Assembly (NCBI GenBank): GCA_963820825.1
Contig: CAWGBN010000006.1
Span: 384,001 to 448,000 of the forward strand
Length of the DNA stretch: 64,000 bases
Reading direction: 5' to 3'
From: Vulcanimicrobiota bacterium
Lineage (GTDB): Bacteria; Vulcanimicrobiota; Vulcanimicrobiia; Vulcanimicrobiales; Vulcanimicrobiaceae
A program made the translations under genes and the position numbers. Below are positions 1 to 37,187 of this stretch, in pieces. The notes under the pieces are model-generated. The model was not told the DNA's origin and did no database searches. It saw nothing but the letters and a program-made list of their open reading frames with translations. The first letter of the stretch is position 1. Each line of letters starts with the position of its first letter.

Positions 1-517
1 CGAGCGCCTCCACGATCTGCAGGGCGTTGCCGCTGGTGACGCAGACGTCGGACTCGGCCTTGACCTCCGCCGACGTGTTCACGTAGGTGACGATCGGCGT
101 CCCGGGATACCGCTGCCGAAGCAGGCGGACGTCATCGGCGGCGATCGACTCGGCAAGCGAACACCCGGCCCGCAGGTCGGGGACCAGGACGGTCTTGGAT
201 GGGTTGACGAGCTTCGCGGTTTCGGCCATGAAGTGCACGCCGCAGAGCACGATAACGTCGGCGTCGGTCTGTGCCGCCTGCATCGCCAAAGCGAGCGAGT
301 CCCCGACGATATCGGCGACCGTGTAGAAGATCTCGGGTACCTGGTAGTTATGCGCCAGGATGACGGCGTTTCGCTCGCGTTTGAGGCGGTTGATCGCCGC
401 CACGTAGGGAGCGTGCAGCGGCCACTCGACCCGGGGAATCACGTGGCCGACGCGGTTGAAGATCGGTTCGGTCTCAGCCGCGACGCTCTCGGTGTAGGGT
501 AATTCGATGACGCCCAT
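1..517 (-). CDS. nadA: Quinolinate synthase NadA (3' part lies outside the window)
   Basis: Manual minus-strand translation from ATG at 517: [11 protein letters not shown]...[13 protein letters not shown]...VGDSLALA...[34 protein letters not shown]...[22 protein letters not shown]. These are the hallmark NadA motifs. It is absent from the ORF track because it runs off the edge. Confidence 0.95.
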
Positions 518-697: not shown

Positions 698-856
698 ATG
701 AATCGATGGTTTATTGGCGTCGTTCTCGCCGGAGCGTGCATCGCGGGCGCGGCGACGACCCTCGCTGCGAATGCGCAACCGGTCATGACGCCCTCGCCGA
801 TGATGTCGCCGATGTCGTCGCCGTCCCCGACGCCTGCCTCGACGATGCGGCCATAA
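698..856 (+). CDS. Small secreted Met/Pro/Ser/Thr-rich protein (52 aa)
   Basis: Strong RBS AAGGAGG (680-686) and ATG at 698. Translation MNRWFIGVVLAGACIAGAATTLAANA|QPVMTPSPMMSPMSSPSPTPASTMRP*, with a Sec-type signal peptide and A-x-A cleavage site. Confidence 0.7.
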   Translation: MNRWFIGVVLAGACIAGAATTLAANAQPVMTPSPMMSPMSSPSPTPASTMRP

Positions 857-947
857 GGTTGCGCGCGGCTTGCGGCACGTCGTGTCGATAAGCCTGTGAG
901 TAACCAAAATTTCTTGTGGAGGCGTTGTGGACTCGAGGTTAAGCGTA

Positions 948-977
948 TTGAAAACCGATTATCGGTTTTGTTAGCAT
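948..977 (+). promoter_or_regulatory. Putative sigma70-type promoter overlapped by two palindromes
   Basis: TTGAAA (948-953), 18-nt spacer, extended -10 TG-n-TAGCAT (969-977) in an AT-rich patch. Palindromes AAAACCGAT-T-ATCGGTTTT (951-969) and TGTTAGCATGCTAACA (969-984). Confidence 0.55.
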
Positions 978-983
978 GCTAAC

Positions 984-1188
984 ACTTCGCCCAATGACGG
1001 AGTGCGGAACGTATCGAACCGCGGACGGCAGCACGTAGACGATCTGTCGCCACAAGCGACAAAATCCGAGTGAGGTCGTTCTAACACCGGATCGAAACGT
1101 CGGTGGGAGGCTGCAACGGCTTCAAACAGGCGAGAATGAACCGGCGGTACACCAAAGCCCGCAGCGTAGGTGCTGCGGGCTTTGTATG
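984..1188 (+). ncRNA. Candidate structured cis-regulatory leader RNA (riboswitch-like) or sRNA, family unrecognised
   Basis: Nested stems found by eye: 986-991/1129-1134, 1004-1007/1019-1022, 1028-1032/1110-1114, 1036-1045/1073-1083, 1045-1050/1056-1061, 1085-1089/1101-1105. Bounded by a promoter and a terminator, with no convincing ORF. Confidence 0.55.
1153..1188 (+). terminator. Intrinsic terminator-like hairpin immediately upstream of the OPT gene
   Basis: 13-bp perfect stem CAAAGCCCGCAGC (1153-1165) / GCTGCGGGCTTTG (1172-1184), 6-nt loop, ending in a T-rich stretch (TTTGTATGT). Confidence 0.7.
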
Positions 1189-1202
1189 TAAGAAACCGCT
1201 CT

Positions 1203-3161
1203 ATGGAAAGCCGAGCGGAGCTTACCCTTCGCGGGTTCGTTCTCGGTGCCGCGATCACGCTCGTCTTTACCGCGGCGAACGTCTACCTCGGGCTCAAGGT
1301 TGGGCTGACCTTCGCGTCGTCTATTCCGGCGGCGGTCATCTCCATGGCCGTCCTGCGGGCGTTCCGCAACGCGACGATCTACGAGAACAACATCGTGCAG
1401 ACCATCGCCTCGGCGGCCGGGACTCTTTCGGCAATCATCTTCGTTCTGCCGGGGCTGGTGATGATCGGCTGGTGGAGCGGATTTCCGTTCCTGCAGTCCT
1501 TCGCGATCTGTGCGATCGGCGGAACGCTCGGCGTGATGTATAGCGTGCCGCTGCGGCGCGCGCTCGTGACGGGCTCCGACCTTCCCTATCCCGAGGGCGT
1601 CGCGGCCGCCGAAGTGCTGAAGGTCGGCACCGGCGCGGGTTCGTCGACGGAGCGCAATCGAGCCGGGCTCCTGGCGTTGCTGGCCGGCACGATCGCCTCG
1701 GCCGCGTTTGCCGCAATCGTCGCAACGCGCCTCTTCATCGGCGAGCTCGCCGGCTATTTTCGAGCCGGCGCGGCGACGACCGGCGCCGGCTTCTCGCTAT
1801 CGCTCGCGCTCGTCGGCGCGGGACAACTCATCGGCATCACGGTCGGCACGGCGATCTTCGTCGGTCTCGTCATCGCATGGGGCATCGCAACGCCGCTTCT
1901 AACCGCGCTCCATCCGATGGCGGGCGACGCCGCCGGCGTTGCAACCGCGGTCTGGTCGCATCAGGTGCGCTTCATCGGCGCCGGCGCGATCGGCGTCGCG
2001 GCGCTCTGGTCGCTCGGACGGCTCGTGCGTCCGGTCGTGATGGGTGTCGCCTCGGCGCTCGCCGCGTCGCGCCGCCGTCGTGAATCTGCGGTAGAGCTGC
2101 CGCGAACGGAGCGCGATCTGCCGATCGGCATCGTCGCGCTCATCAGCATCGCCTGCCTCGTTCCGCTCGCGGTGCTCTTCTGGCTGTTCCTCGCAGGCGG
2201 ACGGCTCGCGCCGATCGCGGGAGCGTTGACCGTGGCGGGCGTTGCGTACGTCGTAGTCGCCGGTTTCTTCGTCGCGGCCGCGTGCGGATATATGGCGGGA
2301 CTCATCGGTTCGTCGAACAGCCCCGTCTCGGGCTTGGCGATTCTCTCGGTGATCGGCGCCGCGCTTCTCGTGCTGGCGATCGGAAGCGGACTCACGCACG
2401 TCGCCGCGCTGCCGATGATCGCCTATGCGCTCGTCGTTACCGCGGTGCTGCTCTGCGTCGCGACGATCTCGAACGACAACCTGCAAGATCTCAAGACCGG
2501 ACAGCTCGTCGATGCGACGCCGTGGCGGCAGCAAGTCGCGCTCGTCGCGGGCGTGGCGGTCGGTGCCGTCGTTATTCCGCCGATACTCGATCTCCTCAAC
2601 CGCGCCTACGGCTTCGCCGGCGCGGTCGTCGCCCATAGCGCCGTTGCGCAGCCGCTGCCCGCGCCGCAAGCGACCTTGATTTCCGCACTCGCCAAAGGCG
2701 TGATCGGCGGCGAGCTCGACTGGCGGCTGATCGGGGCCGGTGCGATCGTCGGCGCAATCATCGTCGCGATCGACGAGTTGCTTCGCACGCGCAAGCTGGC
2801 GCTGCCGCCGCTCGCCGTCGGCCTCGGCATCTATCTGCCGATCTCGACGACCGCGCCGGTCGTGCTCGGCGCGGTCCTCGGTTGGTGGTACAACCGCTGG
2901 GCGGCTCGCCAGCGGGATGCCGACCGCGCGAAACAGCTCGGCGTACTCATCGCCTCGGGCTTGATCGTCGGCGAGAGCCTCTTCGGCGTGCTGCTCGCGG
3001 CCTTGATCGTCTTTAGCGGAAAGGCCGAACCGCTCGGTATCGTCGGCGATGCGTTCACGCCGACGGCGACGGTGCTCGGCGCGCTCGCGTTCGTCATCGC
3101 GATCGGCGTGCTCTTTCAAACGGCGCGCTCGCTGATCCGCAAGACGCCGCAGTCCGCCTAG
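1203..3161 (+). CDS. OPT family oligopeptide transporter
   Basis: ELTLRG...FTAANVYLGLKVGLTFASSIPAAVIS, ENNIVQTIASA, LPYPEGVAAAEVL, SNDNLQDLKTG and LPAPQATL motifs; multi-pass hydrophobic. ATG 1203 is preferred over the track's start at 1170, which lies inside the terminator. Confidence 0.93.
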   Translation: MESRAELTLRGFVLGAAITLVFTAANVYLGLKVGLTFASSIPAAVISMAVLRAFRNATIYENNIVQTIASAAGTLSAIIFVLPGLVMIGWWSGFPFLQSFAICAIGGTLGVMYSVPLRRALVTGSDLPYPEGVAAAEVLKVGTGAGSSTERNRAGLLALLAGTIASAAFAAIVATRLFIGELAGYFRAGAATTGAGFSLSLALVGAGQLIGITVGTAIFVGLVIAWGIATPLLTALHPMAGDAAGVATAVWSHQVRFIGAGAIGVAALWSLGRLVRPVVMGVASALAASRRRRESAVELPRTERDLPIGIVALISIACLVPLAVLFWLFLAGGRLAPIAGALTVAGVAYVVVAGFFVAAACGYMAGLIGSSNSPVSGLAILSVIGAALLVLAIGSGLTHVAALPMIAYALVVTAVLLCVATISNDNLQDLKTGQLVDATPWRQQVALVAGVAVGAVVIPPILDLLNRAYGFAGAVVAHSAVAQPLPAPQATLISALAKGVIGGELDWRLIGAGAIVGAIIVAIDELLRTRKLALPPLAVGLGIYLPISTTAPVVLGAVLGWWYNRWAARQRDADRAKQLGVLIASGLIVGESLFGVLLAALIVFSGKAEPLGIVGDAFTPTATVLGALAFVIAIGVLFQTARSLIRKTPQSA

Positions 3162-35856: not shown

Positions 35857-37187
35857 AATCGATCCCGGCCATGCATACGGTGCTGGCCGATGACCGAATC
35901 GTGCCATATGAGGCCCTACTGGGAAGGAACGTAGTACGGCGCGCGGCCGACGAAGTATTCGGCCGCGTGCGTGCTTCCGATGCGGGCGAAACGTACGACG
36001 GAATCGTCGGCAAGCTCGAGTGCCGCTTGGAGGCGCTCCGCCGCGAGACGCTGCTCCCGGTCATCAACGCAACCGGCATCATACTCCATACGAATCTCGG
36101 GCGCGCGCCGTTGGCAACCGAAGCGCTCGCGGCGGTCGTGGAATTGGCCCGCGGTTATTCGAATCTCGAATACGATCTGCAGCGCGGCGAGCGCGGCTCG
36201 CGATACGCCCGCGCTTCGACGGCGATTGCAGAGATCGCCGGCGCGCAAGACGCACTCGTCGTCAACAACTGCGCCGCCGCCGTGCTGCTCGTTCTCGATA
36301 CCTTCGCCAAGGGACGCGAAGTCGTCGTCGCGCGCAACCAGCTCGTCGAGATCGGCGGCGGCTTTCGCATTCCCGAAGTGCTCGAGCGAAGCGGCGCGAC
36401 GCTCGTCGAAGTCGGGACGACTAATCGCGTTTACGTCGAAGATTTTGAACGAGCCCTCTCGCCGCGCACGGCGTTGCTGCTGCGAACGCATCCGTCAAAC
36501 TATCGCATGGAAGGCTTCATCCACGACGCTTCGGCGCGCGAGCTCGTCGAGCTCGGACGCCGAGCCGGCGTGCCGGTCGTCGAGGATCTCGGCAGCGGCG
36601 CGCTCGTCGATCTCGGGCGCTACGGCATCGCGCACGAGCGCACCGCGCAAGAGGTGCTCGCCGACGGAATCGGGCTCGTTACGTTCTCCGGCGATAAGCT
36701 GCTCGGTGGGCCGCAGGCGGGCATCATCGCCGGTACGTCGCAGCTCGTGGCACCCGTCAAGAACAACCCGCTGCTGCGCGCACTGCGCGTCGGAAAGATG
36801 ACGCTCGCCGCTCTCGCGGCGACGCTGGAACTCTACCGCAACGGCACGGAGGCGGAACGCCTGCCCATCTATCGCATGCTCGCCGCCACAACCCAGGAGT
36901 TGCGCGATCGCGCACGCGCCTATCTCGATGCGATCCCGACCGCATCGATCGTCGAGAGCGTCGCGTACGTCGGCGGTGGGGCGCTGGCGCAAGAGCGCTT
37001 GGACTCGATTGCCGTCGCGGTCGAAGCGGAGTATCCGGACGAGCTCGCCGCGCGCCTGCGCGAACAGGTTCTGCCGGTCATCGCCCGCATCGAGGAGTCG
37101 CGCTTACTGCTCGATCTGCGCACGATCGCGCCCGAAGAGGACCCCGTCGCGATCGCCGCGCTCGAAAGAGTCGTGTCGTCCGCGTAA
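35853..37187 (+). CDS. selA: L-seryl-tRNA(Sec) selenium transferase
   Basis: VINATGIILHTNLGRAP, YSNLEYDL..G.RGSR, VVNNCAAAVLL, LVEIGGGFRIP, EVGTTNR, HPSNY, DLGSG, FSGDKLLGGPQAG. Confidence 0.96.
   Translation: MKSIPAMHTVLADDRIVPYEALLGRNVVRRAADEVFGRVRASDAGETYDGIVGKLECRLEALRRETLLPVINATGIILHTNLGRAPLATEALAAVVELARGYSNLEYDLQRGERGSRYARASTAIAEIAGAQDALVVNNCAAAVLLVLDTFAKGREVVVARNQLVEIGGGFRIPEVLERSGATLVEVGTTNRVYVEDFERALSPRTALLLRTHPSNYRMEGFIHDASARELVELGRRAGVPVVEDLGSGALVDLGRYGIAHERTAQEVLADGIGLVTFSGDKLLGGPQAGIIAGTSQLVAPVKNNPLLRALRVGKMTLAALAATLELYRNGTEAERLPIYRMLAATTQELRDRARAYLDAIPTASIVESVAYVGGGALAQERLDSIAVAVEAEYPDELAARLREQVLPVIARIEESRLLLDLRTIAPEEDPVAIAALERVVSSA

Follow-up and report, generated by a model that had tools for sequence, protein, structure and literature searches.

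In enterobacteria, the small RNA gene for GcvB lies beside gcvA and is tied to peptide and amino-acid uptake. The RNA gene that we describe here was found in a stretch of 64,000 nucleotides of Candidatus Eremiobacterota DNA, hereafter called the window. It is similar to GcvB in its length of about 200 nt, in the possession of its own promoter and terminator, in the adjacent regulator gene and in the nearby peptide and amino-acid genes. This is a likeness by description, and not by comparison of sequence or structure, in which no resemblance is to be expected. Unlike GcvB, the new RNA is conserved over a compact pseudoknotted fold rather than in a single-stranded seed, and it is convergent with the regulator gene, not divergent from it.

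A second group of related systems is formed by the riboswitches that terminate transcription. The new RNA resembles these in that a conserved structured domain directly precedes an intrinsic terminator, that a transporter gene is located directly downstream at the window locus, and that there are several copies per genome. However, it differs from them in that no competing antiterminator is predicted, many copies face a convergent gene, and every copy has its own conserved, apparently regulated promoter. The protein encoded next to the RNA resembles the PafBC/DriD-type WYL transcription factors in having WYL and WCX domains. We know of no small-RNA partner that has been described for these regulators, and a literature search for such a partner returned none among the matches listed. 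A literature search on regulatory RNAs of Candidatus Eremiobacterota, riboswitches included, yielded no such paper among those listed.

A further described RNA with which the new family can be compared is the raiA motif RNA, which has about 200 nt, many paired regions, pseudoknots and many invariant nucleotides. It is reported to be a stand-alone gene that was once considered riboswitch-like and for which the authors argue against a cis-regulatory role; it is single-copy, occurs in Bacillota and Actinomycetota, and usually lacks a terminator stem (PMC10861870). The new RNA shares the length, the many paired regions, a pseudoknot, the many invariant nucleotides and the riboswitch-like appearance at first sight, but it has one to three copies per genome and a terminator, and is confined to one Eremiobacterota family.

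Results

A conserved RNA gene upstream of an OPT transporter gene

An earlier note, made from the sequence alone, had described a non-coding stretch with a promoter-like site and a 13-bp terminator 18 nt before the start of a gene for an OPT oligopeptide transporter. All of these features were found as described (Table 1), the distance of 18 nt being that between the end of the terminator stem and the ATG of the OPT gene. The sequence from 975 to 1205 is predicted to fold with −89.4 kcal/mol compared to −71.9 kcal/mol in dinucleotide shuffles (z = −3.97), and none of 200 shuffles was as good. In BLASTN comparisons, 32 of 36 genomes of the same genus contained the RNA region, with an identity of 77-90% along some 220 nt. 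The sequence on either side could not be aligned among these relatives, the RNA being far better conserved than its flanks, and the conservation ends at the promoter on one side and at the terminator on the other. The conserved folded core has a length of about 170 nt and the whole RNA one of about 205 nt; the transcript probably starts near 984, as judged only from the position of the −10 element.

Table 1. Coordinates of the RNA gene and neighbouring features, counted from the first nucleotide of the window. Pairing values refer to the 82 aligned copies.
Feature	Position	Strand	Description
nadA	2-517	-	Upstream edge of the non-coding stretch
TGTG box 1	895-904 (box proper 895-900)	+	TGTGAG then TAAC; 20 nt before box 2
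TGTG boxes 2 and 3	915-920 and 926-931	+	TGTGGA; direct repeat with 11-nt period
Promoter	948-977	+	-35 TTGAAA (948-953), 18-nt spacer, extended -10 TG-n-TAGCAT (972-977)
Conserved RNA core	982-1149	+	Covariance-model match G000:C6:384982-385149; 168.5 bits (R1), 142.5 bits (R2)
P1 hairpin	985-1002 (985-989 with 998-1002)	+	97.3% paired; 2 of 5 pairs compensatory
P2 hairpin	1003-1023 (1003-1007 with 1019-1023)	+	94.1% paired
P3 domain	1032-1072	+	Outer pairs 1032-1034 with 1070-1072, 93-97% paired
P3 inner hairpin	1046-1050 with 1056-1060	+	95.5% paired; 5 of 5 pairs compensatory
P6	1098-1101 and 1103-1104 with 1126-1127 and 1129-1132	+	97-99% paired; 5 of 6 pairs compensatory
P5 hairpin	1107-1112 with 1118-1123	+	Inside P6 (3' domain 1098-1132); 97.1% paired; 5 of 6 pairs compensatory
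Pseudoknot	1011-1015 with 1146-1150	+	P2 loop (5' strand) with tail (3' strand); duplex energies and covariation
Intrinsic terminator	1153-1189	+	13-bp stem 1153-1165/1172-1184, loop 1166-1171, U-rich tail
OPT oligopeptide transporter gene	1203-3161	+	PF03169, E 4.7e-100; TIGR00733 equivalog

A coding region on either strand was considered and rejected, because the indels in the alignment of the RNA region have sizes of 1-8 nt that are not multiples of three. As to the open reading frames at the locus, a 95-aa ORF on the minus strand (971-1258) overlaps the RNA region, and a 52-aa ORF (698-856, plus strand) lies between nadA and the promoter boxes. The latter has a hydrophobic, signal-peptide-like N-terminus and a Pro/Ser/Met-rich tail, and gave no match in a Pfam search. 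A gene of a phosphoesterase family (PF04185; 3180-4574, minus strand) converges on the end of the OPT gene.

Searches with the covariance models of Rfam 15 returned no match at the gathering scores in the whole window. When E-values up to 10 were admitted for positions 850-1300, only the terminator hairpin was matched, and weakly so (Thr_leader, 22.3 bits; ar14, 19.8 bits); in 13 relatives nothing fell on the RNA. The earlier note is borne out in that the RNA matches no Rfam family. The raiA motif RNA (RF03072) was rejected, since its best match in the genome lies elsewhere with 10.6 bits compared to a gathering score of 101.3, and the locus remained unmatched at E-values up to 10. 6S RNA (RF00013) was also rejected, the RNA locus being unmatched and the best 6S candidate of the genome lying elsewhere. 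This candidate is full-length (G000:C6:255454-255638, plus strand, locus L031), scores 34.5 bits compared to a cut-off of 46.4, and is located on the same contig, about 130 kb ahead of the first position of the window.

With regard to transcript data, two sequencing runs shared 0.05 of the words of the stretch. In one RNA library, short contigs from relatives with a likeness of about 88% covered positions 972-1007 and 1062-1137, and none extended over the terminator or its junction with the OPT gene; contigs of this kind give information neither on transcript ends nor on read-through.

Distribution of the RNA family

Outside the genus, BLASTN did not detect the RNA in any of 24 genomes. With a covariance model built on the core (R1), 93 of 145 genomes from the same family were matched, and none of five from the sister family. 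A second model (R2), built from 82 diverse copies, matched 78 of 150 genomes of the family that were drawn evenly over its genera, corresponding to 37 of 78 genera; this tally includes five unpublished genomes, all of which were matched (G320, G261, G266, G263 and G312). Across the phylum, R2 found the RNA in 49 of 71 genomes of this family and gave one marginal match (23 bits) among 79 genomes of the other 20 families. The RNA family is thus confined to one family of uncultured Candidatus Eremiobacterota soil bacteria. As all RNA-bearing genomes counted here belong to a single bacterial family, the counts do not represent independent events. Matches to a sequence pattern were obtained in records titled Candidatus Eremiobacterota (Vulcanimicrobiota), Ca. 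Baltobacteraceae, Ca. Cybelea, Ca. Tumulicola and Ca. Rubrimentiphilum. Exact pattern matches also occur in records with titles naming Verrucomicrobiia, Gammaproteobacteria, Planctomycetales, Acidiferrales and Babeliales (L137, L143, L152, L177, L190 and L201), which may be mislabelled or mis-binned contigs or may reflect a real spread.

The number of copies per genome ranges from one to three, and most genomes of the same genus have two. The second copy in the genome of the window (G000:C2:228801-228962, plus strand; locus L239, 4001-4162; 90.9 bits) shares the promoter boxes, has a terminator of its own, and is located between hutH and a convergent WYL gene (C2:229055-230050). Tandem arrays of two to three copies, 320-450 nt apart and each with its own promoter and terminator, were found in loci L077, L088, L079, L099 and L074; such arrays are present in many genera, and also in genomes G259 and G269. 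Within the window itself, R2 gave a weak match at 36081-36234 on the minus strand (G000:C6:420081-420234; 15.9 bits, E 0.07), which is probably noise.

A covarying fold closed by a pseudoknot

Pairing was counted in 82 homologous copies (alignment A4), with 500 shuffles and slid controls for comparison. In the curated structure of 30 pairs, 96.3% of the cells are paired, and 21 of the 30 pairs show compensatory changes. None of the 500 shuffles was as good and the slid controls reached at most 50% pairing. The covariation by which the earlier note proposed to judge its candidate RNA is accordingly present, and it supports six helices and one pseudoknot. The closing pair of P2 is G-C in 43 copies and A-U in 31. 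For the pseudoknot, duplexes between cognate loops and tails had a mean energy of −5.65 kcal/mol compared to −4.75 kcal/mol for non-cognate ones, and none of 2000 permutations was as good. The flanks of its invariant GUA/UAC core were paired in 60% of the cases compared to 49% after shuffling (none of 1000 shuffles as high), this test excluding 15 of 81 copies in which the anchor is absent. The invariant nucleotides are concentrated in junctions and internal loops, and the pseudoknot closes the fold.

It should be noted here that these tests rest on alignments that are partly model-fitted. Model R1, to which alignment A4 was fitted, lacked P1 and included P2, P5 and a portion of P6, and P1 is therefore the most independent of the structural results. 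Moreover, kinship among the sequences inflates the shuffle tests, and the occurrence of several independent compensatory variants is the better argument. Taken with these limits, the RNA is a real, previously undescribed structured family. There are also hints, from the sequence, of an alternative pairing of 986-989 with either 998-1001 or 1131-1134: G989 can pair with 998 or with 1131, and where it is changed (L091 and L100) both partners change too.

The helices that had been drawn by eye in the earlier note fared unequally in this alignment. Its UGUCGC/GCGACA hairpin corresponds to the inner hairpin of P3, with 95.5% pairing and compensatory changes in all five pairs. Of its UUCGCC/GGCGAG closing stem (83% paired overall), the inner four base pairs are well kept (92-98%) and the outer two are poor; this stem competes with two covarying helices, P1 and P6. 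The AUCCG/CGGAU helix is intermediate (77%). Three others are not conserved, namely the GCAGC/GCUGC helix (47%), the UAGACGAUCU/AGGUCGUUCUA helix (47%) and the CACCG/CGGUG hairpin (62%), the last of which was equalled by 390 of 500 shuffles.

A fixed promoter layout with TGTG boxes

A predicted promoter directly upstream, which is a feature of stand-alone small RNA genes, is present in all 82 copies. Its full layout is always the same: TGYGNN, 5 nt, TGTGNN, 16 or 17 nt, TTGNNN, 17 or 18 nt, and TANNNT. The spacer between box 3 and the −35 element is 16 nt in 74 copies and 17 nt in 8, and the end of the −10 element is separated by 4 nt from the first position of the model in 79 of the 82 copies. 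A word like box 1 is found at most 30 nt upstream of box 2, about two helical turns away, in 72 copies. Where RNA copies occur in tandem, each has one such promoter. Boxes 2 and 3 are presumed, from their sequence and placement, to be the site of an activator. A scan of the genome of the window for the double TGTG box alone returned 10 sites compared to about 16 expected by chance, and the full promoter layout was found only at the two RNA genes. The double TGTG box was also looked for at the own promoter of the WYL gene, and was not found there.

No predicted competition between the terminator and the upstream fold

In 81 of the 82 copies, the core is directly followed by a terminator that consists of a hairpin with −16 to −34 kcal/mol and a U-rich tail, and the remaining copy has the hairpin with fewer U residues in the tail. 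An own intrinsic terminator directly after the conserved part, another feature of stand-alone small RNA genes, is thus almost invariably present. The earlier note had proposed that the 5' arm of the terminator can alternatively pair with upstream sequence, resulting in a terminator/antiterminator switch. To assess this, each RNA was folded to the end of the terminator 5' arm and the gain in energy was compared with that of 30 shuffled arms, a thermodynamic and crude test that depends on energy models only. Over 81 copies the complementarity of the arm to the upstream RNA did not exceed that of shuffled arms (mean z = +0.3; z below −2 in 2 of 81). In the copy of the window, the gain was −1.1 kcal/mol compared to −1.8 kcal/mol for shuffled arms, and no pairing with 1110-1122 was predicted. 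The proposed switch therefore performs no better than chance, and these energy models give no sign of the competition between terminator and sensor-domain pairing that is a feature of riboswitches.

Between the 3' strand of the pseudoknot and the terminator stem there is a median gap of 2 nt, with values of 0-6 nt in 60 of 66 copies, and no overlap. Since the two abut without overlap, both can form together, and they probably stack. The terminators of copies followed by an OPT gene were similar to those of other copies, with 5.2 compared to 5.3 U residues in 10 nt and energies of −21.8 compared to −23.9 kcal/mol.

OPT and WYL genes as neighbours

An OPT gene is located downstream of the RNA in 30 of 30 loci of the same genus. 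The spacer between terminator and OPT gene is about 18-20 nt in the same-genus loci L001, L002, L004 and L011 and longer in others of this genus. In two further genera the OPT gene also follows directly (L063, L064, L066, L083 and L100). A gap of 18-30 nt between terminator and start codon is present in the window and in L002, L004 and L011, and, by eye, also in L064, L083 and L100. The link between RNA and OPT is real and conserved in three genera. This short gap and the conserved arrangement imply that the RNA at the OPT paralogue is also a leader. In the window, 18 nt leave no room for a promoter of the OPT gene itself, which is for this reason probably expressed by read-through.

At many other loci the RNA does not precede a gene that it could lead. 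Among 80 loci from the pattern scan, 47 were of the OPT type, 30 had hutH as a neighbour, 29 of these lying between this gene and a convergent WYL gene, and 3 were neither. For 66 matches outside the set of first copies, the next ORF was on the opposite strand in 36. A Pfam-confirmed convergent gene for a protein with WYL and WCX domains was present in 23 of 60 loci checked. Further neighbours include a divergent gene for histidine ammonia-lyase or proline dehydrogenase, HIT with YqeY, a tannase-like protein, CHAD-CYTH and a peptide-binding protein; the picking of neighbouring ORFs was crude, and only Pfam-confirmed neighbours are named here. Counted by hand from the match coordinates, 65 of 79 RNA-bearing genomes have an RNA copy within 0.7 kb of the WYL gene in convergent, tail-to-tail orientation, and in most of the remaining 14 a contig end or an inserted gene intervenes; when the unpublished genomes are excluded, the count is 62 of 74. 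In the tail-to-tail arrangement there is no gene for the RNA to lead, and a position in the 5' leader of a controlled gene, as is usual for riboswitches, is a property of the OPT-type copies and not of most copies.

Among solved structures, the WYL neighbour is distantly similar to those of PafC, PafB and a DeoR-family WYL regulator (E 1e-8 to 1e-6), and no NCBIfam model matches it. Its orthologue is single-copy in 144 of 150 genomes of the family, a tally that includes 11 unpublished genomes (G165, G266, G261, G312, G182, G272, G298, G276, G258, G320 and G306). Given this near-universal presence, the presence or absence of the WYL gene is uninformative, and only the adjacency is informative. 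We also examined the WYL gene and about 1.5 kb past its 3' end in 16 genomes in which the model had not found the RNA. A TGTG-box promoter was present in four of these (L240, 2745-2806, minus strand; L242, 1496-1715, minus strand; L243, 1275-1459, plus strand; L246, 1235-1451, plus strand), and weak, divergent RNA copies were detected in three of the four (L246, 25.5 bits; L242, 25.3 bits; L243, 17.9 bits). Downstream of the promoter, all four loci contain an RNA that has diverged strongly and shows 5' hairpins where P1 and P2 would be located. These divergent copies beside WYL genes suggest that the association of the RNA with the WYL gene is older and more widespread than the model is able to detect.

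Discussion

We consider it probable, on the strength of the comparative sequence evidence, that the RNA represents a family of free-standing, tightly regulated small RNAs. The fixed and elaborate promoter, the constant and non-competing terminator, the separate promoters of tandem copies and the many copies that do not lead a gene all fit free-standing small RNA genes that are subject to a single dedicated regulator. An elaborate promoter shared by every copy is what one would expect of an RNA that is itself the regulated product, and would be unusual for operons controlled by a riboswitch. Positions 982-1189 of the window would then constitute one gene of a new structured small RNA family, with a product of about 205 nt. 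Its transcription would start from a sigma-70-type promoter, with the three phased TGTG boxes ahead of it serving as the putative site of a dedicated activator. Starting with hairpin P1, the RNA would fold into P2 and the P3 and P5/P6 domains, and pairing of the P2 loop with the 3' tail would close the fold. The strong intrinsic terminator that abuts this pseudoknot would form alongside it and end the RNA, and the finished RNA may act alone, either in trans or in a complex with a protein or ligand. The ancestral location of the family appears to be tail-to-tail with the gene for a PafBC/DriD-type WYL regulator, the copy in the window being a paralogue before OPT. The OPT gene would be expressed by polymerases that read through the terminator, and would hence be co-induced with the RNA. 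Such an effect in cis is likely for the paralogue in the window because the arrangement of RNA and OPT gene is conserved in three genera. Three observations go against a free-standing small RNA: this same conserved arrangement, the hint of an alternative pairing at G989, and the combination of invariant junctions with a pseudoknot, which is more typical of RNAs that bind a ligand or protein than of small RNAs that pair through a seed. Indeed, the compact pseudoknotted fold with its invariant junctions suggests that the RNA binds a protein or small ligand and does not act by a linear seed alone.

A competing explanation is a new class of riboswitch or attenuator, in which the core would sense a metabolite related to peptides or amino acids and set the read-through of the terminator, into the OPT gene here and elsewhere antisense into the convergent WYL gene. 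The complex covarying fold, its invariant junction nucleotides and the pseudoknot immediately next to the terminator would fit such a sensor, as would the presence of several copies per genome in different contexts, which is reminiscent of riboswitch regulons. It is mainly the conserved OPT arrangement (18-30 nt downstream in three genera), the neighbour theme of OPT, histidine ammonia-lyase, proline dehydrogenase and peptide-binding protein, and the possible alternative pairing of the 5' end that keep some weight on this explanation. Nevertheless, we judge it unlikely, since the antiterminator complementarity does not exceed chance, pseudoknot and terminator do not overlap, the terminators are equally strong in OPT-type and other contexts, the same elaborate promoter precedes all copies including those in tandem, and many copies have no downstream gene on the same strand. 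The earlier note had arrived at a ligand-dependent OFF riboswitch for OPT. Its recognition of an unannotated, structured and conserved RNA with a promoter and a terminator stands, whereas the OFF riboswitch is not supported: the antiterminator fails its test, the pseudoknot leaves the terminator free to form, and most of the helices that had been noted are not conserved. A further point against a transporter-linked riboswitch is the many homologues that are not linked to transporters (30 of 80 by hutH, and adjacency to WYL in 65 of 79 genomes). The alternative given in the same note, a stand-alone small RNA, agrees with the free-standing small RNA preferred here on the basis of the promoter in 82 of 82 and the terminator in 81 of 82 copies.

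The RNA may also be a working partner of the WYL regulator, such that the WYL protein activates the RNA promoter via the TGTG boxes, or the RNA attaches to the WYL domain and thereby tunes the regulator, or both in a feedback arrangement. This would refine a free-standing small RNA rather than exclude it. WYL domains can bind nucleic acids, and this property speaks for a partnership, together with the convergent adjacency in most RNA-bearing genomes, the TGTG-box promoter near the WYL gene in four model-negative genomes and the nature of the WYL protein as a single-copy regulator of the PafC/PafB/DeoR type. On the other hand, adjacency within one family may be a single inherited arrangement, and the double TGTG box is missing from the own promoter of the WYL gene; we regard the partnership, as suggested by sequence and gene order, as very doubtful for the time being. 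A further possibility is a two-part sensor for which there would be no described precedent: the pseudoknotted RNA, alone or loaded with a metabolite, would be bound by the Sm-like WYL domain, the WYL factor would drive the TGTG-box promoter, and the OPT paralogue would couple peptide uptake to the same signal via read-through. We consider this combination quite unlikely. Finally, the region might not be an RNA gene at all, and instead represent a chance fold, a coding stretch such as the minus-strand ORF at 971-1258, or a DNA regulatory region for OPT only. The 95-aa ORF does overlap the region, and the promoter boxes are DNA signals. However, the compensatory changes in 21 of 30 pairs contradict this idea, as do the indel sizes, the abrupt end of conservation at promoter and terminator and the recurrence of the RNA unit in unrelated gene contexts, and it has hardly any probability left.

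Candidatus Eremiobacterota is a widespread phylum of soil and peat in which there is almost no experimental genetics. To this phylum, the present analysis adds a well-supported new structured RNA family together with a covariance model that is able to find it, a highly conserved promoter motif as the mark of a small regulon, and a conserved pairing of the RNA with a WYL regulator of the PafBC/DriD type. A cooperation of WYL regulators with RNAs thereby becomes testable, and the RNA, the promoter motif and the WYL pairing provide a handle on the regulation of peptide and amino-acid metabolism in Candidatus Eremiobacterota.
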